A DNA stretch of 64,000 nt. Origin: an uncultured Bacilli bacterium (lineage in GTDB: Bacteria > Bacillota_I > Bacilli_A > RF39 > UBA660). The stretch spans positions 145,705 to 209,704 of the forward strand of contig CAKOHK010000001.1 in assembly GCA_934085595.1 (NCBI GenBank), given 5' to 3'. Below, piece after piece: positions 4,892 to 60,618 of this stretch. The notes under the pieces were generated by a model. The model saw only the letters and a program-made list of their open reading frames with translations, had not been told where the DNA came from and searched no databases. The translations under genes and the position numbers were made by a program. The first letter of the stretch is position 1. Every line of letters starts with the position of its first letter.

Positions 4892-5902
4892 TTACATAGC
4901 AAGTGCTAATTTCTCAAGACTATCATTATATTTGCTTTTAAGTCCTAGTTCTAATATCTCTCCAAAATGGTCACATAAATTATCAAACTCACTAGTTGCA
5001 TAGCGATCTTGATTTGGACATATTTGATAATTAAATCCATAATCTACAAGAAATGGTCTAATTAATCTATCTTGCCATCTTTCTCCTTGATATAAAATTA
5101 CTCTTTGCCCACATACATTAACTTGCATCCATCCAAGTACTTCAGTAGCAAAACTTTCTCTTATATCAGCAGTAACGTCACATACTCTTTGATATTCTTC
5201 ATATTTAGCACTCATTCTATTAAACGAATCTATATCATACTCTTTAAGTCCATCCATAAATGTTCTAAATAAACTTCCATGATCTTGTCTTCCATAACCA
5301 CCAGCAGCTTTATCATCATATTGACTAACAAGCTCACCATTAGGAAGTATCCAACCTCTAAAACTACTATTTCCACTTTTAGATGTAATATCTTCCATAA
5401 ACGAATCTATTATTTGCTTTTTATATTGTTCTCTTCTTTCTCTTTCAAGTCTTTCCCTTTCAAGTCTTTCTCTTTCGAGTCTTTCCCTTACAAGTCTTTC
5501 TCTTTCAAGTCTTTCTTGATCAATATCATCGCTTGTATTTGTTTGACTTTCTTCATTCTTAGTTTCTTCAGTAGTCTTACTAGTTTTACATAAATAAAGT
5601 GCTATTCTTTCAAGCTTTCTTATAACAGAATCTGTATTTTCACCTTTTGCAAGTTCATTTCTACAATAAGTTGTTAATTGAAGTAAACTCACTCCAGTAT
5701 CACGGCTTAAAGTAAGCAATAAATCATTTAGTACTACAGCACTATTAATATTACTATAACCGTTATTTAAATTACCATATCTTACATATCCTCTATCATC
5801 ATTACTATAGATTATTTTATCATTATTATTATACTTTATATCGTTATACTTATTATTTTCAATTTTTATATTATAATATTTTTTATCATCATAATATGAC
5901 AT
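4892..5902 (-). CDS. Hypothetical protein with a central (RERLE)n repeat
   Basis: 336 aa. The central ERLERERLVRERLERERLERERLERERRE is encoded by a 15-nt tandem DNA repeat. The C-terminal half is Cys/Trp-containing and unrecognised. Confidence 0.4.
   Translation of the reverse strand: MSYYDDKKYYNIKIENNKYNDIKYNNNDKIIYSNDDRGYVRYGNLNNGYSNINSAVVLNDLLLTLSRDTGVSLLQLTTYCRNELAKGENTDSVIRKLERIALYLCKTSKTTEETKNEESQTNTSDDIDQERLERERLVRERLERERLERERLERERREQYKKQIIDSFMEDITSKSGNSSFRGWILPNGELVSQYDDKAAGGYGRQDHGSLFRTFMDGLKEYDIDSFNRMSAKYEEYQRVCDVTADIRESFATEVLGWMQVNVCGQRVILYQGERWQDRLIRPFLVDYGFNYQICPNQDRYATSEFDNLCDHFGEILELGLKSKYNDSLEKLALAM
5436..5520 (-). repeat. In-frame 15-nt tandem repeat (about 5 copies) encoding the RERLE repeats
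   Basis: Plus strand reads ctttcaagtctttcc / ctttcaagtctttct / ctttcgagtctttcc ... inside CDS 4892..5902. Confidence 0.7.
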
Positions 5903-8890: not shown

Positions 8891-10195
8891 CTATATACTT
8901 TTTATAACTATATTATGTACTCTTTTCTTTTTATTATTTATTATAAATGCATTTTTAAATCTATTTTCCATATCATCTATGTTCTTATTATAATATATAA
9001 TTCCAAGTATATCATTACATCTTATCTTTTTACCTAAGTTTTCATTTATGTATACTCCTACATTATAATCTATATTATCTTCTTTTTTACTTCTTCCAGC
9101 ACCTAAATCAAATACTAGTTTCGCTATTTCTTCTGCATCTATTTTATTTAAATATCCTTCTTTATCACTACTTACTATATATTTATTAGCTTTAATTTCA
9201 AATCCATTTAATGTTCCATGTTGTGCTTTTATCCATTCATAAAACTTAGCTCTTGCCATTCCACTTTTAATACTTAATATAACCATTTCTTTTGCTTTTT
9301 TAAATGTTTTATTAAGTGAAACACTTACCATAGTACTTGCTATATAAATACATAATTCATATAATCTTTTATCATATATTCCATCAAAGAACTTAATTGC
9401 TTCTAATACTTCAAGTTTATTTCCAACATATTTTCCAAGTGGATTTTCCATATCACTAAGAACGCATATTAATTTCTTATTATATCTTTTAGCAATATTT
9501 TTCATAAGTTTACTAAGTTTAATAGCATCTTTCCTATTCTTCATGAAAGCACCACTACCTACTTTTAAATCTATAACTATACTATCAGCGCCACAAGCAA
9601 TCTTCTTAGACATAATAGAACTTGCTATTAAAGGTATTGAATTAGTAGCTCCAATTTCATTTCTAAGTGCATATATTTTTTTATCAGCAATGCACATATC
9701 ATCACTTTGACTAATTACATAACATCCTACTTTAGATAAAATATTTTTACTCTCTTCATCACTTATATTAAGTTTATAACCGCGAATGCTCTCAAGCTTA
9801 TCAGCAGTTCCACCAGTAAGTCCAAGACCCCTACCACTCATTTTAGGAACAGCCACTCCAAGAGATGCTACAATCGGAGCAACTATTATTGATACTTTAT
9901 CTCCAACTCCACCAGTAGAATGTTTATCTACTATCTTTTTATCTAAAAAACTCATATCATTAACTTTACCACTTTTAATCATAACATCAGTTAAATAATA
10001 AGTTTCTTCTTCGCTAATACCATTATTATATATATTAAGAATAAACTTACTCATATCTTTATCATTTATTTTGCCTTTAACATACCCCATAACCATATAT
10101 TCTATTTCACTATAAGTAAGTTTTTCTTTACCAGTTTTATTAATAATCTTATCTTTCATATATTCCCTTTCTATTCTATAACTATTATATAACAA
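8891..10195 (-). CDS. pdp: Pyrimidine-nucleoside (thymidine) phosphorylase
   Basis: 434 aa. HSTGGVGDKVS and SGRGLGLTGGTADKLESI are the family's signature motifs. Confidence 0.9.
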   Translation of the reverse strand: MLYNSYRIEREYMKDKIINKTGKEKLTYSEIEYMVMGYVKGKINDKDMSKFILNIYNNGISEEETYYLTDVMIKSGKVNDMSFLDKKIVDKHSTGGVGDKVSIIVAPIVASLGVAVPKMSGRGLGLTGGTADKLESIRGYKLNISDEESKNILSKVGCYVISQSDDMCIADKKIYALRNEIGATNSIPLIASSIMSKKIACGADSIVIDLKVGSGAFMKNRKDAIKLSKLMKNIAKRYNKKLICVLSDMENPLGKYVGNKLEVLEAIKFFDGIYDKRLYELCIYIASTMVSVSLNKTFKKAKEMVILSIKSGMARAKFYEWIKAQHGTLNGFEIKANKYIVSSDKEGYLNKIDAEEIAKLVFDLGAGRSKKEDNIDYNVGVYINENLGKKIRCNDILGIIYYNKNIDDMENRFKNAFIINNKKKRVHNIVIKSI

Positions 10196-10231: not shown

Positions 10232-11266
10232 CTATTTATCAAGAACTAATCTCGTTAGTGAATCTGAATAATTAATTCCATTACTAAACTTACTAGCTTT
10301 ATTAAAAGTATCTACACTCATAGATGCAATCATATTATACTTAAGTTCTTTTAATATCTCATCATAATATTTAGTAGTAGAAACAAGTTGATCATTATAT
10401 TTTGCATTCTCTTCAAAAACTCTTGCATCTACACTATTATCATATTTTATTAATCTTTCTATACTATCATCTCCATATAAAAATCTAACAAACACATTTT
10501 CTAATCCAGTAGACCATAAAGAACCATTTTCATCTTTATATCTTGTATTTCTTTGAATATCATTAAGTATATCTACTATACGATCAAAATCATATGAAAC
10601 CCTATATTTCCTAATCATATCGCCTTCTACTTTTAAATAAGTATCATTACTACAATTACGAAATACAAGATACCTAATATAATCTTTTTTACTTATTTCA
10701 TCTATTACTTCATAACTTATTGCTTCCATAACTGATTCATATAAACTTTTAAGATTAGGAAGATTAGAAGCTACATTTCTTTGTCTATATAACTCTCTTA
10801 TTTTATATAATTCTTTAGCATTAGCATTATTATCTTCTCTTTCTTTTATTTCTTTATCTATTAAAGAAACTAAATCTTCTTCACCATTATATTTTAAAAG
10901 TCCACTAATCGCAAGAGCTCCCATATATTCATTACTAAAGCATATATCATCTAAAAAAAATTCTTCTTCATCTTCTTCATCAAAATCATAAGCAACTCCA
11001 AGTAACATCGCAGTAAGTTTATAAAGTAAAGAATGATAAACTAATTTATATTCTATTTTTCCATCTTTACCTTCTTCTATAGTACTATCATCAAACTTTA
11101 CATACTTAAAATCAAGATCTTTTTTATCAAGAACGCCTTTATCTAACTTACTAGAATATTCAAAGTTACCCTTTCTAATCTCTAAAAATAAATCTTTAAG
11201 TTTATCATAATCAATATCTACTTTATATTTATAAAGCATTCCATCTTTTTCTTCAATATATTTCAT
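10232..11266 (-). CDS. Tandem-array paralog 1 (344 aa), unknown function
   Basis: Starts MKYIEEKDGMLYKYKVDIDYDKLKDL and ends LTRLVLDK, with GGAGG 7 nt upstream. Shares an N-domain, a DLVSLIDKEIKERE hinge and a C-domain (ELYxQRxVAS..., INIFR-like, FPxxxYNM, YYxEILxEL) with 11292..16902. Confidence 0.6.
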   Translation of the reverse strand: MKYIEEKDGMLYKYKVDIDYDKLKDLFLEIRKGNFEYSSKLDKGVLDKKDLDFKYVKFDDSTIEEGKDGKIEYKLVYHSLLYKLTAMLLGVAYDFDEEDEEEFFLDDICFSNEYMGALAISGLLKYNGEEDLVSLIDKEIKEREDNNANAKELYKIRELYRQRNVASNLPNLKSLYESVMEAISYEVIDEISKKDYIRYLVFRNCSNDTYLKVEGDMIRKYRVSYDFDRIVDILNDIQRNTRYKDENGSLWSTGLENVFVRFLYGDDSIERLIKYDNSVDARVFEENAKYNDQLVSTTKYYDEILKELKYNMIASMSVDTFNKASKFSNGINYSDSLTRLVLDK

Positions 11267-11291
11267 TTCAAAACCTCCATTAAATACTATA

Positions 11292-12143
11292 TTATTTTTT
11301 AAGAACTAATTTTGATATTTCTTCTTCACTTACATCATTATCAAATTCCATTATTCTTGTAACTACTTCCTTAGGTCCAGTTTCAATTAATTCAAATCTA
11401 AGTTCATTTAATATCTCATCATAATAATCTTGAGGTAAACCTACATTCATATTATATTTACTATTTGGAAACTCTATTCTAGCATCCATTAATAATTTAA
11501 TAGTTTCATCTATGTTACCATTGCTTATAGTAAGTTTATCAGCAACACCAAGTTGCTTAAAACGTTCTAAGCATCCACGTCTAAATATATTAATTTTTTC
11601 TTTTTTACTATCATATTGTATTAATGCTGAAATATATTCCTTTCCATTTAATACACCCCTTAATATCTGTTCTAAATTAGTCTTTGTCACAAAATATTCA
11701 GAATCCATAAATCCAGTATTTTCATCCAAATTAGCAAGTATTTCTTCCATCTTTTGTCTATCAAATGTTACTTCAAATTTATAATAAGAATCACCATCTA
11801 TTTTTAAATATTGAGTTTCAGATAAAGCTAATACTTTTTTACCCTTCAAATACTCTTCTTTACTTATTTCATCTACTTTTTCAAAATCAAAGTATTTCAT
11901 AAACTCATCAAATCTACCTACAAATCCAATAGGTCCAAATCGTTTAGCTATTGCTTCTTTTCTATCATATAATTTCTTTATTTCACATAATTCTTTAAAT
12001 GCATTATCAAAATCTAGTGCTTTTCTAAAAGCACATTTTCTTCTTTCAATATCTTCATCTATTGATAATAGTAGTTTATCTTCTTCCCTAGCTTTTACAA
12101 GATATTTATAAAGCATTCCATCTTTTTCTTCAATATATATCAT
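11292..12143 (-). CDS. Tandem-array paralog 2, internally deleted (N-domain mostly missing)
   Basis: Likely start MIYIEEKDGMLYKY at 12143 with GGAGG upstream. The ORF track begins 8 codons earlier at 12167. After about 25 aa it jumps straight into the C-domain (KELCEIKKLYDRKEAIAKRF...) and ends ISKLVLKK. Confidence 0.5.
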   Translation of the reverse strand: MIYIEEKDGMLYKYLVKAREEDKLLLSIDEDIERRKCAFRKALDFDNAFKELCEIKKLYDRKEAIAKRFGPIGFVGRFDEFMKYFDFEKVDEISKEEYLKGKKVLALSETQYLKIDGDSYYKFEVTFDRQKMEEILANLDENTGFMDSEYFVTKTNLEQILRGVLNGKEYISALIQYDSKKEKINIFRRGCLERFKQLGVADKLTISNGNIDETIKLLMDARIEFPNSKYNMNVGLPQDYYDEILNELRFELIETGPKEVVTRIMEFDNDVSEEEISKLVLKK

Positions 12144-12156
12144 TTTAAAACCTCCT

Positions 12157-13346
12157 CTAATTAACACATATTATAATATGTTCTATTTTTTTTGTCAATG
12201 ATAATTTCATCACTTCTTCACTTATACCTTCATCAAACTCTACTGCTTTTTTAACTTCTTCCACGCTTTCACTATCAATTAATTTAAATCTTAGTTCACT
12301 TAATATCTCATCATAGTATGCTTGAGGTTCTACTGTTAACTTCGTATTAAATTTACTATAAGGAAATTCGGCTTTAACACTCATTAATCGATCAATAATT
12401 TTGTCTATATCATCACCCATATTATCAGCAATTTCTTTTAAACGTTTTGCATACTTACGTCTAAATATATTAATTTCTTCTTTTTCACTATCATACTTAA
12501 GTAATGATGAAATATCTCCTCTTCCCTTTAATATACTTCTTAATATACATTCTAAATTAGTACTTATTATTATACCTTCATAATTCATAAAGCCACTATT
12601 TTTAACTAGTTTATTAAGTATTTCTTCCATATTATCTTTATTATATGTTACTTCATATTTACAATAACTACCGCATTCTATTTTCAAGCATTGATCTTTA
12701 GATAAAGCAAATATTTCTCTATCTTTAAGATACTCTTCTTTATTTATTTCTCCTACTTTTTTGAAACTAATACAGCCCATAACTTCAGCATACTTATCTA
12801 AAAATCCTGCAGGACTTAAAAGTTTTGACGCTACTTCTCTTTGATAATATAACTCTTCTATCTTAGAAGCTTCTTTAAGTTTACGCTCAGAATCACGTCC
12901 ATACACTCCATCATCTATTATTTTTTTCTTCCTTCTATTTCTTCATCTATTAAAGAAACTAAACTCTCTTCTCCTTCATAATTCAAAAGATTAGAAAGAC
13001 CTAGTATTTGTACATAGTTACTATCAAACCTTTTACCACTAGCATATAGTTCTTTATCAAGCGCTTCAATATTATCATCAAAATCAGCTAACCTACTTAC
13101 ATATTTATAAAGTTTTGAATAGTAAGTTAAATGATAACATAGTCTTTCACCAATTTTACTTTCAGTAATACTATCAGCATAACAAAAATCTAAATCATCC
13201 GCCTTAAGTATTCCATCCTTTAATAACCTATGGTAAATAAAATTACCCTTTCTTATTTCAGAAAATACCTCTTCAAGTCTATCATAATCAATATCTACTT
13301 TATATTTATAAAGCATTCCATCTTTTTCTTCAATATATATCATCAA
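12157..13346 (-). pseudogene. Tandem-array paralog 3, split by a frameshift at an A7 homopolymer. The two ORFs are 12918..13346 (N-domain) and 12157..12906 (C-domain)
   Basis: The N-half ends ...LVSLIDEEIEGRKK*. The C-half continues in the +1 frame as IIDDGVYGRDSERKLKEASKIEELYYQRE. The junction is minus-strand ggaagAAAAAAAtaatag (plus T7 at 12921-12927). One extra A would give a single ORF of about 398 aa. Confidence 0.6.
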
Positions 13347-13365
13347 AAGCTCCCTTAAATCTGTA

Positions 13366-14562
13366 TTACTTTTTAAGAACTAATCTTGATACTATTTCTT
13401 TATTTATTTCACTTTCAAACTTTTCACATCTAGCATATTCTTCAAGATCCATAGTAGAAATTAAAGTAAACTTTAGTTTACTCATTATTTTTTTATAATA
13501 ATCTTGAGGTAACTTTACTTTCATATTATATTCAGCATTTGGAAAATCTTTTTTAGCCGCTTCTAATAACTCAGTTATACGCATCAAATCTTCTTCATTT
13601 TTTCCTTTTTTATTTAACAGCTCTTCAATCTCTTTATAACGCTCATTACATTCTTTTCTGAAAATATTAATTTCTTCTTCAGCACTATTATAATTGATAA
13701 GTTCAGAAATATTAGCTTTACGATCAAATACATCACGTAATATATCTTCTAATTTAGTGGAACGTACATAGACATAAGGTTTATATCCAGTATTTCTATA
13801 TAAAGCATCAGACAATTCTCTCATATTATTTCTATTAAATGTTACTTTATATTTTTGAACATTGTTTCCTTGCACTCTTACATATGTATCATAGCTTTGA
13901 TTAGTAAAGCCTAAATATTTTTCATAGTCTTCTTTACTTATCTCATCTACTTTTTCAAAACTTATAGTTTCCATAACAGATTCATATAGTTTTGAAACAT
14001 CTAAAAGACTAGCTGCTTCTTCTCTTTGATTATATAACTCTTTTATTTTATAAGCTTCCCTAAGTTTCTTATCAAAATCAAATTTATTTTTTTTACTTTC
14101 TAACACTTTAATTCTTTCTTTAATTTCTTCATTTATTAAAGAAACTAGATCTTCTTCTCCATCATATTTTAAAAGTTCAATAAGACTTAATAGTTTTAAA
14201 TATTCACTATCAATCTTTCTATCAAGAGGGTACATTTGATCAGCAAAGTATAAATCATCTCTATGACATTTAACCTCATCTTCATAGCCAAGTAATCTAC
14301 CAATAATTATATAAAGTCTTGAACAGTGAACTAATTCATAACAAGTACCCAACATATCACCATTATTAGAAAGCAAATTCTTTTGATCAAACTTTGTATA
14401 TTCAAAATCTATATCATCCCAGTCATGTATATCTTTACCTAATGAACCAGTATAATAAAAATTACCTTCTTCTATCTTTAACATTAATTCTTTAAGTCTT
14501 TCTTCATCAATATCCACTTTATATTTATAAAGCATTCCATCTTTTTCTTCAATATATTTCAT
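13366..14562 (-). CDS. Tandem-array paralog 4 (398 aa)
   Basis: MKYIEEKDGMLYKYKVDIDEERLKEL ... VSRLVLKK. Full two-domain architecture. Confidence 0.6.
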   Translation of the reverse strand: MKYIEEKDGMLYKYKVDIDEERLKELMLKIEEGNFYYTGSLGKDIHDWDDIDFEYTKFDQKNLLSNNGDMLGTCYELVHCSRLYIIIGRLLGYEDEVKCHRDDLYFADQMYPLDRKIDSEYLKLLSLIELLKYDGEEDLVSLINEEIKERIKVLESKKNKFDFDKKLREAYKIKELYNQREEAASLLDVSKLYESVMETISFEKVDEISKEDYEKYLGFTNQSYDTYVRVQGNNVQKYKVTFNRNNMRELSDALYRNTGYKPYVYVRSTKLEDILRDVFDRKANISELINYNSAEEEINIFRKECNERYKEIEELLNKKGKNEEDLMRITELLEAAKKDFPNAEYNMKVKLPQDYYKKIMSKLKFTLISTMDLEEYARCEKFESEINKEIVSRLVLKK

Positions 14563-14587
14563 TTTAAAACCTCCCTTAAATATAAAA

Positions 14588-15709
14588 TTATTTACAAAGT
14601 ACTAACTTAGATGCTACTTCTTCACTTATTCCACTTTCAAACTCTTCTACTTTCTTATATGTTTCAATATCCATAGAAGAAACATTTTCATAATTAAGTT
14701 CACATAATATCTTTTCATAATATCCATATGTTGGAACTATACTCATATTATATTCTGCATAAGGAAAACTATTTCTAACTTCTTCTGTCACATTAATAAG
14801 ATCATCAACACTATTAGAATCTAAAGTGCCTATCTTTTTGGACTGTTCCATGCACTCTCTTCTATATATATTTATTTTTTCTTTATCAGGTTCGTAACTC
14901 AATAATGAAGTTATATTAGTTTTACCATTAATAAACTCAATTAATAGTTTCTCAAGTTCTGTACTTTCAAACTTACCAGAAGCATCCTTATAACGAGTAT
15001 CCATCTGCATAAGACGAAGTAAATAAACAAGACGATTCATATCAAAACATACTTTATTTTTATTAATATATTTTCCATCTTTTACCAAGAATGAATTATT
15101 ATCACATTTACATAGTTCCCTATATTTAGTATAATCTTTCAAACTTATTTCATCTATTTTTTCATAAGTTATTGTATTCATAATATCACTATAAAACCTA
15201 GTAATATCAGGAAGACTAGCTGCTTTTTCTCTTTGATTATATAGTTCTTTTAATATATATAGTCTAGTAAGTCTACCATTAAAATCATATTTAGATAAAC
15301 CACTATAAAGATTCTCTTTTCTCTTTTCTATTTCTTTATCTATTAAAGAAACCAAATCCACTTCCCCACTATAACTTTCAAGTTCATAAAGAGCATACAT
15401 CCTATCATACTCATCACAGTTACTTTTAGAAATTACATCATACTCTAATAATCTATTAGCAAGCTTATATAAATTAGAATAAAGAACTAATTCATAAGAT
15501 AACCCTTTTTCTCTACTAATACTATCTTCATCAAAATCTATATATGAAGTAAAATCTAAATCTTTATATGTAAGTGTTCCTTCTTCTACATCATGACTAT
15601 AATAAAAATTACCATCTTCTATCTTTAATATTAATTCTTTAAGTCTTTCTTCATCTATATCCACTTTATATTTATAAATCATTCCATCTTTTTCTTCAAT
15701 ATATATCAT
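14588..15709 (-). CDS. Tandem-array paralog 5 (373 aa)
   Basis: MIYIEEKDGMIYKYKVDIDEERLKEL ... ASKLVLCK. Confidence 0.6.
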   Translation of the reverse strand: MIYIEEKDGMIYKYKVDIDEERLKELILKIEDGNFYYSHDVEEGTLTYKDLDFTSYIDFDEDSISREKGLSYELVLYSNLYKLANRLLEYDVISKSNCDEYDRMYALYELESYSGEVDLVSLIDKEIEKRKENLYSGLSKYDFNGRLTRLYILKELYNQREKAASLPDITRFYSDIMNTITYEKIDEISLKDYTKYRELCKCDNNSFLVKDGKYINKNKVCFDMNRLVYLLRLMQMDTRYKDASGKFESTELEKLLIEFINGKTNITSLLSYEPDKEKINIYRRECMEQSKKIGTLDSNSVDDLINVTEEVRNSFPYAEYNMSIVPTYGYYEKILCELNYENVSSMDIETYKKVEEFESGISEEVASKLVLCK

Positions 15710-15735
15710 TTCAAAACCTCCTTTAAATACTTATA

Positions 15736-16902
15736 CTATTTACCAAGCACTAATTTAGATGCTGCTTCTTTATTTACTTCACTATCAAACTCTTGAGCTT
15801 TGTTATATATTTCACTATCTAGTGAAGGAATAAAAGTATATCTAAGTTCCTTAATTATTTCTTCATAATATGAATCAGTTGAATCTATGCTCATATTATA
15901 TTCAGCATATGGAAACTCATTTCTAAGTTTTTCCATTAGCTCAATCTCACCATCAATATTTTCTTCACTAAGTAAACCAATCTTTCTATAGCGTTCAGCA
16001 CATTTCTTTTTAAAAATATTTGCTTGTTCTTCTTCACTATTATAATTAATTAATGAAGAAATATCTCCTCCTTCATCAAGTATATTAACTAATATACGTT
16101 CTAAATTAGTTGGTACTAATCTTCCATCAAGAGCTTTAAATCTTGTATTATCTTCAATACTTTCTAATATATTTCTCATTCTCTCTTCATCAAATGAAAC
16201 TAAATATTTTCTAGCGTTTTCATTTTCAGTTTTACTAATAATTCTTGAGTTATAGTTAGATAAAACTAAATAAGCCATATAATCTTCTTTTAGAATCTCA
16301 TCTATTCTTTCAAAACTTATAGTGCTCATAACAGCATAAACAAATCTTCTAGCGTCCACAACGTCAGATGCCACTTTTCTTTGTTTATATAGCTCCTTTA
16401 TCTTATAAAGTTCTCCGCACTTTCCAGCATAATCAAACTTAGATGGTTCATTTCCGAGTAAACTTTCTCTTTCCTTAATTTCCTCATCTATTAAAGAAAC
16501 CAAATCCTTTTCACCATTATAATTTAAGAGTTCAAAAAGCCCAGAAGTCATTATATAATCTCTAATATCATCTTCATCACTAAATGGCTCCACGTAATAT
16601 TCTTCAATATCTTCAATATCTTCTTCCATACCAAGTAGTTTATTAACAATCTTATATAAATTTGAATAATAAACAAGTTCATATCTAGAACTAAATAAAC
16701 CGTCACTAAAAATCCAATTTATACTATCAAATCTTGTATAATCAAAATCTAATTCATCAAACTCTAACTTATCTTCATCTAGCGAATTAGAATATTTAAA
16801 GTTACACCCTTTCATCTCATTAAATATTTTTCTAAGTCTTTCTTCATCTATATCTACTTTATACTTATAAATCATTCCATCTTTTTCTTCTAAATATATC
16901 AT
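15736..16902 (-). CDS. Tandem-array paralog 6 (388 aa)
   Basis: MIYLEEKDGMIYKYKVDIDEERLRKI ... ASKLVLGK. GGAGG lies 12 nt after the stop of the upstream metallophosphoesterase gene. Confidence 0.6.
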   Translation of the reverse strand: MIYLEEKDGMIYKYKVDIDEERLRKIFNEMKGCNFKYSNSLDEDKLEFDELDFDYTRFDSINWIFSDGLFSSRYELVYYSNLYKIVNKLLGMEEDIEDIEEYYVEPFSDEDDIRDYIMTSGLFELLNYNGEKDLVSLIDEEIKERESLLGNEPSKFDYAGKCGELYKIKELYKQRKVASDVVDARRFVYAVMSTISFERIDEILKEDYMAYLVLSNYNSRIISKTENENARKYLVSFDEERMRNILESIEDNTRFKALDGRLVPTNLERILVNILDEGGDISSLINYNSEEEQANIFKKKCAERYRKIGLLSEENIDGEIELMEKLRNEFPYAEYNMSIDSTDSYYEEIIKELRYTFIPSLDSEIYNKAQEFDSEVNKEAASKLVLGK

Positions 16903-16914
16903 TTCAAAACCTCC

Positions 16915-18021
16915 CTATTTGATACCGTATCTTTTACTAAACTTATCTATCATAGATAAACTTCTACTATCTCCTACTTCTTCAATAATCTCTTCTTCTA
17001 TAACTTCTTGTGTTATTTCTTCACACACACTACTTTCTTCTTCTTTAAACTGTACATATCTTTTAAACTTATTTTCCGGACTACACACTATATGTGTCAT
17101 AATACTACTCTCTCCAAGAGATATAACCTTATGATCATTATTTAACCATAGTTCCTTTACATTTACAAGTGATATAGTATTATTTCCAGTATTAATAGTT
17201 ATATCTAAAAAACAAGGACACATTTCATTATTAATCATAATATCACTTAAAGTAGGAACTTTAATATATAAACTATTAGCGTGCTCTCTTATCTTAAATC
17301 TGTGTTCATGTCCACTAAGTACTATTCCACAAGCACTTTCTATATCAAGTTTAGTATTATTTTTATATGTTTTACCTAAGTCATGTCTCATAAATATATT
17401 AATCTTAGATAAAACAACTTTAGAAAGACCATACCCAGTAAACACCATATCATGCCTTCTAGAATTAATCATTTCCCCAATATCTATATTAAACTTCTCA
17501 TAAAAACTCATATCATGATTTCCACCAATCATAAAATTAATAATATTTTTATCAAACGGATATTTCTTAATCGTACTATCAATCATATCTATAGGATCAC
17601 TATAATTAACTTTATATATTGACGAAGGCATAAATCCTTCAAATATATCACCACTATTAAATATAATATTTATTCCATTCTTCTTAGCATAATCATATAC
17701 TATTTCCATATATCTATTATCTGAATATTTACTCTCTCTATGTTCATCACTAACAGCTATTATTCTATATATTCTATTAGTACTTTGCATAGGATTTCCA
17801 ACTATAAATATATCTTTATCTTCATTATTAAAAACACTTTTAATTCCATAAGTAATATTACCATTATCATGATAAAATCTATCTAAATTAATACCATAAC
17901 ATTTAAGTCTATTAAGTTTAATATATAACTGTTTATTACTAATTCCAAGTGTGCTAGCCATCTCATTAGCACTCTTCCCGTTTTTAATCATCTCTATTAT
18001 TTTAGCATTGTCTTCATCCAT
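16915..18021 (-). CDS. Helix-turn-helix N-terminal domain fused to a calcineurin-like metallophosphoesterase
   Basis: 368 aa. N-terminal GKSANEMASTLGISNKQLYIKLNRLK looks like an HTH. MPE motifs appear in canonical order: SDEH, GDIFEG, GGNHD, RHD, SGHEHR. Confidence 0.65.
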   Translation of the reverse strand: MDEDNAKIIEMIKNGKSANEMASTLGISNKQLYIKLNRLKCYGINLDRFYHDNGNITYGIKSVFNNEDKDIFIVGNPMQSTNRIYRIIAVSDEHRESKYSDNRYMEIVYDYAKKNGINIIFNSGDIFEGFMPSSIYKVNYSDPIDMIDSTIKKYPFDKNIINFMIGGNHDMSFYEKFNIDIGEMINSRRHDMVFTGYGLSKVVLSKINIFMRHDLGKTYKNNTKLDIESACGIVLSGHEHRFKIREHANSLYIKVPTLSDIMINNEMCPCFLDITINTGNNTISLVNVKELWLNNDHKVISLGESSIMTHIVCSPENKFKRYVQFKEEESSVCEEITQEVIEEEIIEEVGDSRSLSMIDKFSKRYGIK

Positions 18022-18063: not shown

Positions 18064-18279
18064 TCAAGAATAATATTTAAACTTAATAAGTTTATATAAA
18101 TGAACTAAAACAAGCGCACTATTTAAAAACCATACACTAAAAGCATGTATTAATAGTCCATATATAACAAAAAGTATAGCTCCTATTAAATTAACTATTC
18201 TAATCTTTTCTTCACCCTTAAGTAAAAAAGATATTAAAACTATTACGCTCGCACAAACGCCTATAACTTCATAATTCAT
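18064..18279 (-). CDS. Small two-TM membrane protein
   Basis: 71 aa, hydrophobic. Confidence 0.4.
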   Translation of the reverse strand: MNYEVIGVCASVIVLISFLLKGEEKIRIVNLIGAILFVIYGLLIHAFSVWFLNSALVLVHLYKLIKFKYYS

Positions 18280-47615: not shown

Positions 47616-49361
47616 TTATTCTAATATAGCTTTAATTCTTCTAACCCCAGCACTACTAGCTTCCTCTTTAACTATTTTAAAATGCCCAAGTTCACTTGTA
47701 TTCTTAACATGAGGACCACCACATAATTCTTTTGAAACATCACCAATAGAATATACAGTTACCATATCAGGATACTTCTCAATAAACATACACTCAGCCC
47801 CACTATTAATCGCATCTTTCTTACTCATCTCTTCTACTTTTACATCAAGACCTTCTTTAATCCATTCATTAACTAAATCCTCAGTCTTTTGCTTCTCTTC
47901 ATCACTAAGTTTATGATCACAAGAAAAATCAAATCTCATTCTCTCTTCAGTAATATTACTTCCCTTTTGATGTACATCTTTATTTACTACAACTTTTAAA
48001 GCAGCATTTAATAAATGAGTCGCAGTATGATATTTAGTTTCCTTTTCACCATTACCACCAAGACCACCTTTAAACTGTCCACTACTAGCAGTTCTACTAA
48101 GTTCCTGATGAGCCTTATACTTTTCCTTAAAACCATCTTCATCAACTTTAATACCTTTTTCTAAAGCAAGTTCTATAGTAAGTTCAATAGGAAATCCATA
48201 AGTATCATATAATCTAAATGCACTACTAGCATCTATATCTTTTCCATCTTTAACTGTTTTTTCAAACTCTCTAAGTCCTTTTTCTAATGTTTTATTAAAC
48301 TTCTCTTTTTCATTCTTTAAAACTTCTAAAACAACATTTTTATTTTCTTTAAGTTCACTATAATATTTTTCATATTTACTAATTATTAAAGATGCTACTT
48401 TGCTTTCCCAATCACTATTTATATCTATATTTAATTTCTTAGCATGTCTTATGCTTCTTCTTATAAGTCTTCTAAGTATATACCCTTGTCCTACATTACT
48501 AGGTTTAATTCCTGCTGGATCTGCACTTATAAATACACTAGTTCTAATATGATCTGCTATTATACGCATACTTTTTTCATTACCTTCATATGGCAAAGAA
48601 GTAATTTCACATATTAAATCAATAACATCTTTCCATATACTAGATGCATAATTATCATTTACCCCTTCAAGTACACTTGTAACCCTTTCAAGACCCATAC
48701 CCGTGTCTACATTCTTATGTGCAAGTGGAACTATGCTACCATCTTCCTTATGTTCATACTGCATAAACACATCATTCCATATCTCAACCCATCTATTATC
48801 TTCAGGATCAAATACTTCTGGTACTTCTTCATCACTTCTGAAATAAAACATTTCTGTATCAGGCCCACATAACCCTACCATCTCAAGATTAGGCCACCAG
48901 TTATCCTCTTTAGTCCTAGCTATTCTCTCTTCCTTAATACCTAAACTTTTCCAAAGTTCAATAGCCTCAGTATCCTCATCAGCTATTTCATTCCCAGCAA
49001 ATACAGTAACCGCAAGTTTTTCCACTGGTATATTAAGTACTTTAGTTAAAAACTCAAAACTCCACTCAATAGCTTCCTTCTTAAAATAATCACCAAGACT
49101 CCAGTTACCAAGCATTTCAAAGAAAGTATGATGATATGAATCCCCTACTTCATCTAAATCATTAGTTCTAATACACTTTTGATAATCACAAAGTCTTTTC
49201 CCATAAGGATGCTCTTTCCCACTTAAATATGGTACTAATGGCTGCATACCAGCTGTATTAAAAAGAACAGTATTATCATTCTCTGGTACAACCGGAGCAC
49301 TAGGTATTTGCTTATGTCCCTTACTAACAAAAAAATCAATAAATAAATCTCTTACATTCAT
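47616..49361 (-). CDS. alaS: Alanine--tRNA ligase, unusually short form (581 aa) with aminoacylation and editing motifs but no C-Ala domain
   Basis: N-terminal FNTAGMQP, HHTFFEMLGNWSLGDYFK and WPNLEMVGLCGPDTEMFYF. Editing-domain HTATHLL (HxxxH) and CGGPH. Preceded by a T-box with a GCU specifier. Confidence 0.75.
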   Translation of the reverse strand: MNVRDLFIDFFVSKGHKQIPSAPVVPENDNTVLFNTAGMQPLVPYLSGKEHPYGKRLCDYQKCIRTNDLDEVGDSYHHTFFEMLGNWSLGDYFKKEAIEWSFEFLTKVLNIPVEKLAVTVFAGNEIADEDTEAIELWKSLGIKEERIARTKEDNWWPNLEMVGLCGPDTEMFYFRSDEEVPEVFDPEDNRWVEIWNDVFMQYEHKEDGSIVPLAHKNVDTGMGLERVTSVLEGVNDNYASSIWKDVIDLICEITSLPYEGNEKSMRIIADHIRTSVFISADPAGIKPSNVGQGYILRRLIRRSIRHAKKLNIDINSDWESKVASLIISKYEKYYSELKENKNVVLEVLKNEKEKFNKTLEKGLREFEKTVKDGKDIDASSAFRLYDTYGFPIELTIELALEKGIKVDEDGFKEKYKAHQELSRTASSGQFKGGLGGNGEKETKYHTATHLLNAALKVVVNKDVHQKGSNITEERMRFDFSCDHKLSDEEKQKTEDLVNEWIKEGLDVKVEEMSKKDAINSGAECMFIEKYPDMVTVYSIGDVSKELCGGPHVKNTSELGHFKIVKEEASSAGVRRIKAILE

Positions 49362-53191: not shown

Positions 53192-54349
53192 TTACAAACT
53201 CTTTTCATTCTCCATACTCAAAGCGTATTCAAGCACATTATCAATTCCATTCAAATAATCTTCCTTACTCTGCTCTATATAAACGTCAGGCATAAAAATA
53301 ACAGGTGTAATAAACTCATCTCTTACTTCAGATTTATATTCTTCTTTTGAAGAAGCACTCCACTCATAATTAGGAGCAAAGAAACAAGAAGACGAAGAAA
53401 AACGATAACCATTATATTCTATCCAATCTGAATTACCATAGCAATTTAAAGGTGTTGATATCCCAGTTCCAATAGTAATTGCTCCAAGTTTTATTAAATC
53501 TACAAGTAGAGATTTACCAGAAGAAAACACTCTATAATCAGTCAAACATATTATTCTTTTTTTAGTCTTAATAATAAAATCAATTAAAGGTTTATTAAGC
53601 CCAGAATTACCACCAGTATTACCTCTTATATCTACAATTATTGTATCTATTTCTGATAAATCAAGTTTACTTATTTCACTCATCATATTCTCAATATTAC
53701 TTTTAAACTTATTTTGAACAGAAGAATAATTAATAATTAATTTCTTATCTTTAACACCATAAGTTCCAACATTTCCATAAGCAAATATATCCCAATCAAA
53801 CATTTCTTCTTCACTATATTCTTCATCTTTTTTAAACTCTCTAGTAATTATTCTACCATCAGTTTTTTTAAAACTCATAACTAAAGAATCAGCACCTCTA
53901 AACATAGGTATTCCAAACATTTTTTTCTTATTAAATAGTGCCTTCTCAAGTTCATATATTCTTTTCTCTTCAGTTCCATAAGTAATGACATCATCTAATT
54001 GATCTAATACATCTTTTATATCATACCCATTTATAGATATTAATTCATAACCCTTTAAATTATCAGGATAGTTTATAATAACATCTTCACCAAATATTCT
54101 AAAGTTCATCGGTATCATTTTAACATCTTCATACTTACTATGAGCATCCACTTCACCACATAATCTCTTTAAAATAACATTCATCAAATAATTAAAAGAA
54201 TAATCATCATTTATATCTTGATTAGAAACTATATTATTATAAAGTTTATCTAACTCACTTTCACTAATCTCATGCCATGGATTTACATGTTTATTTTTAT
54301 AATGATTTATAAATACATCATACATTTCTTTATATTTAATAGAAATCAT
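53192..54349 (-). CDS. S41-family (C-terminal processing peptidase-like) protein, cytoplasmic
   Basis: 385 aa. IVDIRGNTGGNSGL resembles the S41 catalytic-region motif. No signal peptide. Confidence 0.4.
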   Translation of the reverse strand: MISIKYKEMYDVFINHYKNKHVNPWHEISESELDKLYNNIVSNQDINDDYSFNYLMNVILKRLCGEVDAHSKYEDVKMIPMNFRIFGEDVIINYPDNLKGYELISINGYDIKDVLDQLDDVITYGTEEKRIYELEKALFNKKKMFGIPMFRGADSLVMSFKKTDGRIITREFKKDEEYSEEEMFDWDIFAYGNVGTYGVKDKKLIINYSSVQNKFKSNIENMMSEISKLDLSEIDTIIVDIRGNTGGNSGLNKPLIDFIIKTKKRIICLTDYRVFSSGKSLLVDLIKLGAITIGTGISTPLNCYGNSDWIEYNGYRFSSSSCFFAPNYEWSASSKEEYKSEVRDEFITPVIFMPDVYIEQSKEDYLNGIDNVLEYALSMENEKSL

Positions 54350-54450
54350 AACTTACCTCTTCAATGATATTATATCACATAAAAGAACTTTATAATAAAG
54401 TCCTTACTCTTATCACTATCATTATATTAATAGCCTTCAAATTACAATAA

Positions 54451-54678
54451 CTATCTTCTTCCATTTTGTTGAAATTGCTTTAAGGTATAATCTTCATAAC
54501 TCATTGTTTTTTGATTTGCATATGCTCTTTGATTTTCATTATATTCTTTTAAAACACCTGTAGTCACAACTGCTCTACCATAAGCATCTTCATTAAAGCC
54601 ACAAACAACTCTACTTTTTTCTGCTTGATATGCTTGTTTCTTTAATAACAATAAATATTCTTTTTCTGTCATATGCAT
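54451..54678 (-). CDS. Small hypothetical protein
   Basis: 75 aa. Confidence 0.3.
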   Translation of the reverse strand: MHMTEKEYLLLLKKQAYQAEKSRVVCGFNEDAYGRAVVTTGVLKEYNENQRAYANQKTMSYEDYTLKQFQQNGRR

Positions 54679-54743
54679 CTCCTTTAACTGTTTTATATTA
54701 TATCAAAACTATGGTAGGTGTCAACTTTCAAAAAAGCTATTCT

Positions 54744-55106
54744 TTATACATTTTTAGGAACTAATTCTTTTTTAATTTCATTTTTATTATTTCTAAGTTT
54801 CCACCAAAAACATCTAATAAAATCAAAATCATATAAAACTTTTAATACCTCTATTGGAAGAAAATCTAAGTTATAACTACAACTATTAGATGGTATAATT
54901 ACTTCTCCAATTACTTTAAAATCACCATAACTTAATGATTCAGAAGTGACTATAATATCTAAGTTTCTTTTATTAAACTCTTTTTGTAAAAAATAACCAA
55001 ATTGATTAAGTTCTGATATTGTAATATATCCTTCATTAAAAATATGCTTCTTTGATTCAATAAGTGATATTGCTACATATCCGTTTCCTAAAAAATAAGT
55101 ATTCAT
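54744..55106 (-). CDS. Hypothetical protein
   Basis: 120 aa. Confidence 0.35.
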   Translation of the reverse strand: MNTYFLGNGYVAISLIESKKHIFNEGYITISELNQFGYFLQKEFNKRNLDIIVTSESLSYGDFKVIGEVIIPSNSCSYNLDFLPIEVLKVLYDFDFIRCFWWKLRNNKNEIKKELVPKNV

Positions 55107-55328
55107 AAAACCTCCTTCATAAAATATATATTAGCTAACATTTATTATTTATTATTTTTTTACATAAGCACCATTACTGATTACTTCTCTGCCCAAGAAA
55201 TCCAGTACTTAACATACAATTAGAACATTCGCACAAATAATGCTTGGTTCGATGTACCTTAAAGGTCTTCTAACAATATCATATCATTTTTTTACAGATT
55301 TACAACAAATTATCACTTATAAAAATTT

Positions 55329-55390
55329 AAAAAGCCTAAGGCTTCTAAAGTTTCATAGGCACTTTTCAATATATAATATTGCATTATTTA
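55329..55390. repeat. Intergenic repeat A, copy 1 (hairpin-containing, about 60-80 nt)
   Basis: aaaagcctaaggcttctaaagtttcataggcacttttcaatatataatatt is about 80% identical to 57836..57900. aagcc-taa-ggctt hairpin with a T-run on the minus strand. Confidence 0.55.
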
Positions 55391-55503
55391 AAACAAAAAA
55401 GCAAGTCAGACGCATCTAACTTGCTCAGATGGGATCCGAAGATACACCATCGCCATTCACATTTATAATATACCATAATTGCAAAAATTATGCAATAATT
55501 CGA

Positions 55504-56490
55504 TCAACTTTTTATAAATTTTCGTAAAGCTGATAATTTATTCTTTGTATCAGAATATATAATCTTATTATAAATACTAATGGAAATCTTATTTCTAAAC
55601 TCCTCAATAATTTTTTCATAATCATTTACAAATTTATTAATTTCAGTTTTAGTAATTCCATACTTTTTTAATAAAACTGAAATAATAAGAACATAATCAG
55701 TAATTGTATTAAAATCTATTCCAGTACAACATATTTCATTTTCTAGATATTTAGATAATTTAGTATCAATTTGCCCGTCTTTAAATCTCACATCAAAAAC
55801 TACATCATTATGTGCAATTGAATTTCTTAATGATTTAATTAAATACATAATCTTTTCAGGAAATTTAGCATTAGTATCAAATGCAATATTTATATTCATT
55901 TCTTTATCAATTTTATTTCTAACTTTAAATTCTAAACTTTTAATTAAATCCGCAAACGTTCCTAATGTAATTATTTCAAATATACCCCAAATTGGAACAT
56001 ATCTATCTTTTGAATAAAAATGACTAACAATTTTATTTTCATTATTATAACTTCTAGATAAAGAAGAATAAATACTATTTTGTACTGATAATCTTTGCTT
56101 CATTTTCTTTTTATATTCTTCGCTAGTATTACTATTTCTATAATCAGTCATACCATTTTCATAAATAACATTAAATTCATCAGTTTTATACTCTTCAACT
56201 AACATTTGAAGTACAATATTTTTTGAAATCGTTTCTATTTGCATTATTTGTGGATATAATAAACTTTTTAACTTAGAGTCAAAATCAACTATTGAAACTA
56301 TTTCATCAAAACTAGATAAATTTATTCTATTTTGTGTATTATTAATGTATCTATAACCCTTATAACCATGATAATAACCTATATTTCTTAAACTCTTTTT
56401 ATCTTTAGTACCTCCAATAGAAATATTATGCTTTTTTCTTAAATATATCATTAAAGCATTTGTTGTTCTAACTTTCATTTTTATATTCAC
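55504..56490 (-). CDS. Abi_2 (AbiD/AbiF-like) abortive-infection family protein
   Basis: 328 aa. N-terminal LRNIGYYHGYKGYRYI matches the Abi_2 NIGYYRLSGY signature. Confidence 0.6.
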   Translation of the reverse strand: MNIKMKVRTTNALMIYLRKKHNISIGGTKDKKSLRNIGYYHGYKGYRYINNTQNRINLSSFDEIVSIVDFDSKLKSLLYPQIMQIETISKNIVLQMLVEEYKTDEFNVIYENGMTDYRNSNTSEEYKKKMKQRLSVQNSIYSSLSRSYNNENKIVSHFYSKDRYVPIWGIFEIITLGTFADLIKSLEFKVRNKIDKEMNINIAFDTNAKFPEKIMYLIKSLRNSIAHNDVVFDVRFKDGQIDTKLSKYLENEICCTGIDFNTITDYVLIISVLLKKYGITKTEINKFVNDYEKIIEEFRNKISISIYNKIIYSDTKNKLSALRKFIKS

Positions 56491-56567
56491 CTCATTTCTA
56501 CATATAGAAAAAGAGCAAAATAAATCTTATTCCTAATAAGTCACTACTTGCCCTTATTTTTTCTTAT

Positions 56568-57434
56568 TTAAATATATTTAATATTATTTCTGATATTTAT
56601 GTTTGGTATTCTTCTAACAAGAGTTTTCTGTAATTCTGTTTTTTCTCTACAAAAAGCTAAAGAATGCTGATTTTTTTCATCTTCAAAATCTTTATCTGTT
56701 AATCCATAATCATCTAATAATAACTCATGAAACGTTTTTGTAATTTCTATTTCTTTTTTATCATCATCAGTTAATTCTTTTTTTGCATCTAACTGATTAA
56801 ACTTTTCTTCATATGCTCTTATTTTTCGAGCATGTTCAAAATCCCATTGTGGAGCAGGTCCACCATAAGTATTAGGTCTAGAATGATATGGATTTCTCTC
56901 ATCGTATAATCTATCTAATTCACTTATTACTCGCATCAATTCTGCTTCCCTATGTTCTTTACTATCGATAGTTTGAAATAAAGAAATATTACCTATTTTC
57001 ATTGTTTTATAACCACTCGGTATTTTTGAACTAAAGCCCATAGGACCTTCATGATAATCAAAGTCAAATAATTTAAAGCTTCTTTCTTCGCCTAATGAAG
57101 CATATACTTCTAATCCTTCAATATCATCATTATCATCAGATATTTCAAGCTCTGATTCATTTTGTTTAAATATGTTTAATGCCCTATTATAAATATTATA
57201 CATTGCTATTCTTTTATATACTTCTAATTCTGATATAGCAGCTCTATCATTATCACTAATGTACTCTCTGATAACTGAAAATTCCAAATCTATTAAAGAC
57301 TTTAAATAGTTAATCATTGAAACATTTAGTATTCCCTTATAACCTTTCAAAAGTTCAATTAATTCTTCCCTAGTGTTTATTTTATTCCAATTCTCATTCA
57401 TTTGCATTATTTCCATTTTTAAACCTCCCTTCAT
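56568..57434 (-). CDS. Hypothetical protein (288 aa), possibly co-transcribed with the Abi gene
   Basis: Acidic, cytoplasmic, no motif. Confidence 0.4.
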   Translation of the reverse strand: MKGGLKMEIMQMNENWNKINTREELIELLKGYKGILNVSMINYLKSLIDLEFSVIREYISDNDRAAISELEVYKRIAMYNIYNRALNIFKQNESELEISDDNDDIEGLEVYASLGEERSFKLFDFDYHEGPMGFSSKIPSGYKTMKIGNISLFQTIDSKEHREAELMRVISELDRLYDERNPYHSRPNTYGGPAPQWDFEHARKIRAYEEKFNQLDAKKELTDDDKKEIEITKTFHELLLDDYGLTDKDFEDEKNQHSLAFCREKTELQKTLVRRIPNINIRNNIKYI

Positions 57435-57710
57435 CTAATCATTTATTATAGCATAATTTTTATAATTTGAAACAAAAATTGTTTTTTTGAGTATTATCTT
57501 TCAAAAGTTAGGTTTTAAATAGTTTTTCTTGTTTCAGATAATTTAATCTTATTATTTAAATTTTAAATAAACATCTCGTTAGAATAATCAAAAGATATAA
57601 AGATAATATTATTAATTATAATTCTATGTGGTTCTAGATAAGTAAGATTGGTCTTATCAATACCCCTCAAATCACCATTAATAACAATTGGCTTAACTCT
57701 ACAAAACCAT

Positions 57711-57900
57711 AAAAAGTTCAAGTAGATTTTCCTATGGTGTCCTAAGGAAAGAAGTAAAACAACTTTTAAGCAACATTTAATAGTTAGTAATAAAATAAAC
57801 TAATACAAATATATCATAAAAATTTATAAAATGAAAAAGACCTAGGGCTTCAAAAGTTTTATAGGCACATTTTAACAAATAATATACACTATTTATTGAT
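57711..57900. repeat. Intergenic repeat B copy 1 (57711-57815) followed immediately by repeat A copy 2 (57836-57900)
   Basis: B reads aaaagttcaagtag...tatggtgtcctaaggaaagaagtaaaacaacttttaagc...aatagttagtaataaa..aactaatacaaatat and is about 85-90% identical to 59463..59575. Confidence 0.55.
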
Positions 57901-58111
57901 AATTTATAGTTAAGTATCAATTTTATTGTTAGTTTTATCACTAGTTTTATCTTTATCGAATAATGATTTTTTTAATTCTTTCTAATTCATAAGTTTTTCC
58001 ATATCCATTTGGTCATATAAATATTTATAACATAATTCACTTCTAACCACATAAAAAGAGCGTAGTATTCCTTATTATATTAATAAGTCTTTACTAGCCC
58101 TTATTTTTAAT

Positions 58112-59311: not shown

Positions 59312-59462
59312 TATAAACCTCCCTTGTTAATTGTTTATTGTAACACACACAATTTAAGATGTAAACATTTGCTACTCTAGATATTTTGATACAAGCATCA
59401 AAATTATCAGTGATGATTTTATTACATAAAAACGTACCTATATTTCAAACTGAAAATATATT

Positions 59463-59600
59463 AAAAGTTCGAATAGTTCAAACATATTTACTTATGGTGC
59501 CCTAAGGGAAGAAGTAGAACAACTTCTAGGGCAAAAGAAATAGTTAGTAATAACTATTAACTAATATAAGTATAACACAAATTTTCAAAAAAACATTAAA
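59463..59600. repeat. Intergenic repeat B copy 2 plus a truncated A-like start
   Basis: aaaagttcgaatag...tatggtgccctaagggaagaagtagaacaacttctagggc...aatagttagtaataac..aactaatataagtat. Here GCCCTA...GAAG...CTTC...TAGGGC forms a nested stem. Confidence 0.55.
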
Positions 59601-59657
59601 TAATGTTCATATTTAAGTAAAATATGTTATAATATCAATCACTAAGGAGGTCTTTTT

Positions 59658-60485: not shown

Positions 60486-60618
60486 TACTATTTACACACG
60501 CTAATTGATTATGTCGATTTGCAAGTGTGTTTCTAAATTATTAAAATAAAAACTAGTTTCAATTTAATTTGAGAGTAGTTTTTATATTATCTCGAAAAGT
60601 TCGAGTTTCCTATCAATC

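Follow-up and report, generated by a model that had tools for sequence, protein, structure and literature searches.

A strain-variable tandem array of paralogs from an undescribed protein family in uncultured gut Bacilli

Introduction

Homogeneous polyimmunity loci are tandem arrangements of co-directional genes with short spacers, which are not interrupted by toxin genes and differ in number and type between strains (Zhang et al. 2012; PMC3482391). The gene families found in such loci include SUKH, Imm6, Imm11, Imm28, Imm33, Imm36 and Imm41 (PMC3482391). At type VII secretion system (T7SS) loci of Firmicutes, arrays of esaG (DUF600) and tipC genes recombine through blocks of homology, which results in mosaic genes, gene loss and array expansion (Garrett et al. 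2022; PMC9484751). Here, we describe a tandem array of six paralogous genes, which is located on the minus strand of a 64-kb stretch of DNA from an uncultured Bacilli bacterium (assembly GCA_934085595.1, contig CAKOHK010000001.1); this whole stretch is referred to as the window. A recombining tandem array of paralogs is an organisation that is already known; the protein family and the module from which its members are built are undescribed.

An operon-like array of six paralogous genes

The array occupies positions 10232-16902 (minus strand) and is genuine: six co-directional paralogs, A1 to A6, are arranged on the chromosome in the manner of an operon. An earlier reading of the letters alone, the original prediction, had placed six consecutive minus-strand genes, one of them split, in this region, and the listing of open reading frames (ORFs) returned exactly this span. 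The same ordered array was recovered in more than ten independent metagenome assemblies from different studies and is therefore not an assembly artefact, an outcome that the original prediction had considered; it is also contained in the metagenome-assembled genome (MAG) GCA_964329685.1.

Each gene was assigned an N-terminal (N) and a C-terminal (C) module type. A1 (388 aa, N4-C5; 15736-16902), A2 (373 aa, N5-C2; 14588-15709) and A3 (398 aa, N1-C4; 13366-14562) are full two-module copies according to the ORF listing, the protein alignment, module typing and searches with a hidden Markov model (HMM) of small homologs described below, which matches A1 twice. A4 is truncated by a frameshift in the window, where it consists of a 5' fragment with the N6 module (12918-13343, within an ORF at 12918-13346) and, in another reading frame, a 3' fragment with the C1 module (12157-12906). 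Relative to the intact alleles of 383-386 aa, which are present in the strain loci L001, L002, L003 and L050, a single T is deleted after a run of seven A residues (around position 12925). A second indel extends the A-run at the normal stop codon (around position 12175) from seven to eight residues, so that the frame gains nine codons. These homopolymer indels could reflect real pseudogenisation, slippage resembling phase variation or sequencing errors. The ORF of A5 spans positions 11292-12167, and its true ATG is located at position 12143 (gene 11292-12143, 283 aa, N3-C3). The first 14 residues of A5 are joined straight to the hinge, most of the N-module being deleted, and this 283-aa form was found in every array of the species that was examined. 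A6 (344 aa, N2-C6; 10232-11266), the last gene of the array, lacks a helical hairpin of about 40 residues in its C-module. The structural truncation of A5 and A6 is shared by all strains with these genes.

The genes are separated by spacers of 12-32 nt. A comparison of seven junctions revealed a GGAGG-type ribosome binding site (RBS), in one case GGGAGC, which is followed by TTTTGA or TTTTAA. The short spacing and the RBS type had been predicted correctly, but the range is wider than the 12-26 nt claimed and one RBS deviates. The spacer between A1 and the upstream gene, which codes for a metallophosphoesterase (MPE), reads GGAGGTTTTGAA (16903-16914, minus strand) and contains an RBS. RBS and spacer of this junction closely resemble those within the array and belong to the 5' homology block.

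Inside the array, a candidate sigma-70-like promoter (TTGACA-17-TATAAT, 12 of 12 consensus matches) was found on the minus strand at positions 12170-12198, which is built from the last codons of A4 (..LTKK) and the spacer preceding A5. The promoter-like element is kept in other strains with a spacing of 16 nt, where it also occurs after an additional N8-C7 copy. It is possible that this element serves as an internal promoter for the distal genes A5 and A6. The sole terminator-like hairpin detected in the array, at positions 12017-12034, is part of the A5 coding sequence and was taken as a chance occurrence.

The six paralogs are 37-46% identical to each other in the protein alignment, and their paralogy is far above chance, with E-values of 1e-42 to 1e-231 in a database of 5.8 billion proteins. 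The alignment contains all of the shared motifs quoted previously, namely MxYIEEKDGMxYKYKVDID, DLVSLIDxEIKxR, ELYxQRE, INIFRxxC, FPxAxYNM, YYxEILxEL and KLVLxK. As had been proposed, the proteins are acidic (pI 4.5-5.4; 33.5-47.8 kDa for intact copies) and of cytoplasmic type: they lack a transmembrane segment, with a maximum 19-residue Kyte-Doolittle hydropathy of at most 1.25 versus 2.37 in a neighbouring membrane protein of 71 aa. The claim that both ends of the proteins are nearly identical between copies holds for the N-terminus, where a block of about 15-19 residues is conserved, but at the C-terminus only the KLVLxK tail of about six residues is shared, and the nucleotide identity of this region is not elevated. 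The first 15 codons have a nucleotide identity of 0.93 and, where the amino acid matches, a codon identity of 0.97, as compared to about 0.5-0.9, mostly 0.7-0.8, in other 15-codon windows. The hinge forms the third conserved block with a nucleotide identity of 0.79. Part of the N-terminal conservation is due to a structural motif, which the single-module alignment shows to be common to the whole family.

Protein family and two-module architecture

The original prediction recognised no domain in the array proteins, and indeed, neither Pfam, NCBIfam, PADLOC nor PHROGs yielded a match above threshold for any array copy or single-module homolog. Searches of the PDB with sequence profiles of both the array and the single-module proteins were likewise without a match. 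In the Pfam immunity families, the sole match, which was below threshold, was one of a single fragment to Imm22/DUF4284 (E 0.11, 13.8 bits at a cut-off of 27 bits). The best array-protein match in PADLOC-DB v2, PDC-M71A (E 0.0017, 15.8 bits), was obtained for one copy only and is not significant; the single-module homologs had none in this database, and those of the MPE were weak and restricted to its helix-turn-helix (HTH) domain. No array or single-module protein matched a PHROG below an E-value of 0.005.

The family has a narrow distribution. Among 5.8 billion proteins, 22 were recovered with a word-indexed search and 20 with a profile search, all of which are copies from the same array or from the array of a sister taxon. 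In metagenomes of the JGI, the family was found in the same species only. No family member was detected in 185,579 GTDB species representatives, among which the window's own species was not returned with the MPE pattern either. One candidate member (L048:3017-3730) proved to be a pyrimidine-nucleoside phosphorylase (PyNP).

An exhaustive HMMER scan of 1.84 billion representative sequences yielded nine marginal matches of 178-264 aa (E 2.6e-5 to 5.4e-4), which are genuine remote homologs consisting of a single module. They share an N-terminal hairpin-helix ('KYEVxxDxxKL'), the motif 'LLNY..E.ISIDExI' and the C-terminal motif 'YYdKl..lI.F.L'. In a profile-profile comparison using hhalign, the single-module and array profiles matched with a probability of 98.5% (E 1.5e-15), and nearly the whole small protein was paired with residues 227-385 of the array protein. 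The single-module HMM matches full-length array proteins in both halves: in most of them, the match to the N-terminal half covers HMM positions 1 to about 200 with E-values of about 1e-10 to 1e-13, and the C-terminal half is matched with about 1e-6 to 1e-10. Furthermore, an internal repeat was detected by hhalign between the N-terminal 33 residues and residues 226-257 of the C-domain (91% probability). These three lines of sequence evidence together show each array protein to be a tandem duplication of a module of around 200 aa. The predicted layout of the module consists of a beta-hairpin and a helix ('KYxVxxDxxxL'), a small sheet, a helix with the motif 'LLxY...E-LVSIDExI', a long helical hairpin and a final helix-strand element ('YYxxIL..F.LI').

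Single-module homologs are rare and are found as one copy, or as two copies per locus, in other metagenomic contigs. In one of these contexts, a gene encoding a NUDIX/NrtR protein is followed by a single-module gene of 218 aa and a His-phosphatase gene. In the other (L058, 6089-9942), a copy of 252 aa, an SDR gene and a copy of 218 aa are arranged in a row, the last of which has an overlap of 8 nt with the start of rarA/mgsA. A conserved partner common to the single-module contexts was not found. Considered along with the RecX and exonuclease-like MPE genes of the window, the rarA/mgsA overlap hints at a recombination or repair neighbourhood for the family.

AlphaFold2 (AF2) produced a confident model of A3 from an alignment of 19 sequences (pLDDT 84.8, pTM 0.68), a structural check that the original prediction had put forward. 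In the model, an alpha/beta domain at the N-terminus is followed by a long helical hairpin (residues 139-184) and a C-terminal alpha/beta-plus-helical domain. The AF2 models had no fold match in the PDB, and the module is regarded as a candidate for a new fold. Since the invariant columns of the single-module alignment (M, Y, L, P, L, I, L, L, Y) are hydrophobic or aromatic apart from one proline, the array proteins are more probably binders, with a binding or scaffold role, than enzymes. The two-module paralogs retain a few invariant charged and polar residues.

Strain variation, recombination and selection

The N- and C-modules of every copy were typed across the strain loci, which revealed the canonical array [N4-C5][N5-C2][N1-C4][N6-C1][N3-C3][N2-C6]. 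Within the species, the number of copies is 4 (L051), 5, 6, 7 or at least 9 (L002), and two are found in the sister taxon; a comparison of copy numbers between strains, which had been suggested at the outset, thus shows 4 to at least 9 copies. An extra [N8-C7] copy is present in L001 and L002, the latter of which also carries a tandem duplication of the A1-A2-A3 unit and thereby reaches at least nine genes. In L006-L008, N7 replaces N6 and A6 is cut to a remnant of 48 aa. L049 contains a fusion gene of the type N1-C1, and A3 and A4 are missing in L051. The two copies of the sister taxon are of wholly different types, being at most 48% identical per module.

Duplication with ongoing recombination, as originally predicted from the divergence pattern, is borne out by these changes in copy number and by the junctions of the rearrangements. 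In A4 of L003, a tract of about 120 nt is 98-100% identical to the adjacent A3 but shares no more than 52-57% identity with the L001 allele of A4, and this tract is a product of gene conversion. The L049 fusion gene matches A3 with 100% identity as far as about nt 600 and A4, likewise with 100% identity, from about nt 540 onwards, which places the crossover inside that homogenised tract. The junction of the A3-A4 deletion in L051 falls within an overlap of 48 nt, which consists of the RBS and the first codons. Replacement of N-modules is also visible in the DNA comparisons. The conversion tract as well as the fusion and deletion junctions lie in conserved homology blocks. The alignments thereby show that the array evolves by homologous recombination between conserved blocks, namely the RBS with the first 45 nt or so and the hinge, and that recombination through these blocks gives rise to gene conversion, swaps of modules, gene fusions, deletions and duplications.

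Within the species, the ratio of non-synonymous to synonymous substitutions (dN/dS) is 0.17-0.82 for array genes and 0.04-0.13 for the genes encoding an F420-ligase-like protein, the MPE and PyNP. For single genes, values of 0.26-0.53 (A5), 0.13-0.24 (A6) and 0.04-0.06 (MPE) were obtained. The array genes are therefore constrained, as their values stay below 1, yet evolve faster than the three neighbours. A 336-aa ORF without a Pfam match elsewhere in the window (4892-5902, minus strand) is also fast-evolving, with a dN/dS of 0.38-0.55 and a length of 326-341 aa among strains.

Genomic neighbourhood

The array is located between the genes for the MPE (368 aa; 16915-18021, minus strand), which ends 12 nt before A1, and PyNP, a thymidine phosphorylase that does not belong to the family (8891-10159, minus strand; assigned from the Pfam families precomputed for orthologs). 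This position is the same in all strains and in the sister taxon, and on the 5' side of the array no partner other than the MPE is conserved. Both neighbours are highly similar among strains (99% identity for the MPE and 96-100% for PyNP). Further upstream, genes for RecX and the F420-ligase-like protein are found, and VanY, a bPH protein and the mraZ-rsmH-ftsL-PBP cluster are encoded downstream. The GC content is uniform across the array and its flanks (0.24-0.26). A scan of the roughly 55 largest ORFs of the window revealed housekeeping genes, among them SpoVAD, or proteins without a Pfam match; the presence of SpoVAD marks the organism, a gut Firmicute with a GC content of about 25%, as a spore-former. 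In the sister taxon, RecX, the MPE, two family genes and PyNP are arranged in this order, with a gap of 9 nt between the MPE gene and the array, and the flanks are 84-93% identical. The array was therefore inserted next to the MPE gene before the two taxa separated.

The MPE is calcineurin-like and consists of an N-terminal HTH, the phosphoesterase domain and a conserved C-terminal KFxKRYG tail. It matches PF00149 with 25.5 bits, above the gathering score of 21.5, and PF12850 with 26.5 bits, and it contains the motifs DxH, GD, GNHD/E, H and GHxH. The metal-binding motif positions D92, H94, G124-D125, H169-D170, H213, G237-H238 and H240 are invariant in 13 homologs. A match to PHROG 7339, annotated as 'DNA repair exonuclease', was obtained with an E-value of 2.4e-9. 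The protein and its homologs at the loci L009-L044 form an unnamed subfamily in gut Bacilli, Erysipelotrichaceae and CAG MAGs, which has no fixed genomic partner. Around 30 distant homologs (about 30% identity; CAG:417, CAG:302, CAG:628 and uncultured Bacilli) have no gene of the array family within 10 kb; at these loci, the family HMM remained silent, and the downstream genes are heterogeneous, none of them being common. The association of the array with the MPE is thus confined to this clade. The idea that the conserved partner of such MPEs might be a distant relative of the array proteins was rejected, as the ORFs coupled to the MPE gene in L013/L026, L016 and L040 encode HExxH, kinase-like, dehydrogenase or methyltransferase-like proteins. 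In the CAG:628-like loci L013 (9062-11484) and L026 (11032-13454), the gene of the MPE homolog shows translational coupling with those of two HExxH-motif paralogs, which are 30% identical and flank a kinase-like protein of 238 aa; this small cassette is unrelated.

In the window, the genes for RecX and the MPE are separated by that of the 71-aa membrane protein (18064-18279, minus strand), which was not detected by tblastn in the sister taxon (L047), where RecX and the MPE gene are 139 nt apart with no gene called between them. At a greater distance from the array, an Abi_2 (AbiD-like) protein is encoded at 55504-56490, next to a tRNA-Thr gene (60619-60695), and surrounded by ORFs without a Pfam match (53192-54349, 56568-57434, 58112-59311 and 59658-60485); the region 53192-60695 possibly represents a small islet of defence or mobile genes. 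The alanyl-tRNA synthetase ORF (47616-49361, minus strand) codes for 581 aa with tRNA-synt_2c and tRNA_SAD domains and is shorter than typical bacterial enzymes of this type, so that the gene may be C-terminally truncated or split.

Possible function and alternative explanations

As a tentative interpretation, the array could be a co-expressed repertoire of non-catalytic binders with differing specificities, which is organised like a homogeneous polyimmunity locus. In this lineage, a double-module gene was amplified between the HTH-MPE gene and PyNP. The paralogs would be expressed together from one transcript, and each of them would neutralise or recognise a different variant of a polymorphic partner, such as an incoming toxin or phage protein. 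In favour of this reading are the strain variation and recombination of the array, the higher dN/dS of its genes in comparison with the three neighbours and the strong divergence of the sister-taxon copies between well-conserved flanks. Several points speak against such a repertoire. The functional interpretation as a whole is founded on analogy. No toxin, T7SS/LXG, RHS, secretion, phage or mobile-element gene was found among the roughly 55 largest ORFs of the window or in the 10-kb flanks of the array in other strains. The original prediction had raised the idea of homologous arrays beside toxin or secretion genes, but none was found in the flanks of other strains, in the sister taxon or at the single-module loci; unlike in polyimmunity families, no toxin domain lies beside any member in these places or in the window, which together amount to a handful of contexts. 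A tblastn search of 50,697 phage and 72,556 plasmid records gave no match, and IMG/VR yielded no confirmed family locus. The single-module homologs reside in ordinary chromosomal contexts (NUDIX/His-phosphatase and SDR/RarA) rather than in conflict loci. With 280-400 aa and two modules, the array proteins exceed typical immunity proteins of about 100-200 aa two- to threefold. Within the species, orthologous copies share 94-100% identity and their order hardly changes, which makes the array less variable than many immunity islands, and every dN/dS value is below 1, compatible with mere relaxed constraint. The original reading as an immunity, decoy, anti-defence or effector array is thus supported in part, by the polyimmunity-like organisation and the recombination through blocks, but not by any link to toxins, phages or plasmids. 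Members of an immunity family are recognised by some of them lying directly beside a cognate polymorphic toxin; because of the missing toxin adjacency and the lack of homology to any catalogued immunity (such as SUKH, SuFu or Imm1-Imm74) or defence family, the array was not filed as an immunity locus.

It was also considered that the array genes are lineage-specific cellular paralogs with a regulatory, scaffold or sporulation-related role, which undergo birth and death under relaxed purifying selection, with recombination as a passive by-product of the tandem repeats. This explanation is possible though doubtful. It agrees with the location of the single-module genes in the chromosome beside housekeeping genes, with the position of the array in a core region (RecX, PyNP, VanY and the division and cell-wall cluster) of the same GC content, with dN/dS values that all stay below 1 and are matched by some other unannotated neighbours such as the 336-aa ORF, and with the tolerance of pseudogenes and truncated copies. 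The organism is a spore-former, and spore-forming lineages have many orphan sporulation proteins. However, it leaves unexplained why four to nine diverged copies stay intact and co-transcribed and why the copies of the sister taxon are so dissimilar at the same locus while the flanks are conserved; moreover, even the truncated A5 and A6 are still at a dN/dS of 0.13-0.53. The close spacing of the MPE gene and A1, which is like that within the array, and the preservation of the MPE-array-PyNP order in the sister taxon led to another, unlikely alternative: the array proteins may be accessory or specificity subunits of the HTH-MPE, which would be an SbcD/Mre11-like, DNA-binding catalytic effector, and act as interchangeable regulators, inhibitors or sensors, possibly in a two-part system for nucleic-acid surveillance or defence. 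The intact metal-binding motifs, the HTH and the exonuclease PHROG match of the MPE would fit this role, as would RecX just upstream and the single-module homolog that overlaps rarA/mgsA, and the acidic array proteins could mimic DNA as inhibitors. On the other hand, the MPE homologs of other gut Bacilli lack a nearby array-family gene, the single-module homologs are not found beside an MPE, no PADLOC defence system was matched, and the MPE evolves slowly (dN/dS about 0.05) while the array varies. Finally, an assembly error with collapsed or expanded repeats, or ORFs that are not real genes, is hardly credible. The two indels in A4 could be sequencing errors and the three-gene duplication of L002, which lies on a single contig of 11 kb, could be a mis-assembly, but the independent assemblies, the long and intact ORFs with dN/dS values below 1, the confident AF2 models and the existence of remote homologs contradict this explanation.

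If the proposed protective repertoire proved true, it would add a family unrelated to any catalogued immunity or defence protein and would suggest that toxins or phage factors of a class not yet known circulate among uncultured human-gut Firmicutes. A more far-reaching version holds that the module is a new fold and family whose amplified form is an unrecognised cytoplasmic specificity repertoire in gut Firmicutes, providing immunity against unknown polymorphic toxins or serving as sensor or inhibitor subunits of a two-component defence with the HTH-MPE as nuclease; this is rather improbable. Whatever its function, the array offers a clear illustration from nature of the way in which conserved blocks drive conversion, the exchange of modules and changes in copy number within a bacterial gene array, and a defined family signature, two alignments and a strain-by-strain map are now available for experiments.

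Comparison with known systems

Among the proteins of the locus, the upstream MPE can be compared with metallophosphoesterases of the SbcD/Mre11/YfcE type, as it passes the PF00149 threshold and keeps all metal-binding motifs. It differs from them by its N-terminal HTH, the KFxKRYG tail and its membership of the unnamed gut-Bacilli subfamily, and it lacks an SbcC partner. None of this applies to the array proteins, which have no relationship to the metallophosphoesterase superfamily.

The array differs from described polyimmunity loci in that its proteins have no sequence or fold relation to the Imm or SUKH families, that the family is limited to one genus-level lineage and rare single-module relatives, and that the locus lies in a core housekeeping region without recombinase genes. 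It resembles these loci in several respects: at least four tandem, co-directional genes of the same family with short spacing are characteristic of them, and here six genes are separated by 12-32 nt; the array is uninterrupted, as only family members are found between the MPE gene and PyNP in all strains; and gene number and type vary among strains, with 4 to at least 9 copies as well as swaps and fusions. The proteins are likewise soluble, have no obvious catalytic residues and are probably encoded by one transcript.

The T7SS immunity arrays differ in the proteins involved, since no match to DUF600, TipC or DUF443 (TsaI) was found in Pfam or NCBIfam and no T7SS, EsaD-like or LXG gene is present among the roughly 55 largest ORFs of the window or in the flanks. 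In their architecture, however, the esaG and tipC arrays are closely similar to the locus described here: non-identical tandem paralogs contain short blocks of high identity (5', central and intergenic in those arrays), which are separated by variable regions. There, recombination through the blocks gives rise to mosaics, deletions and expansions, and equivalent events were found in the array of the gut Bacilli.

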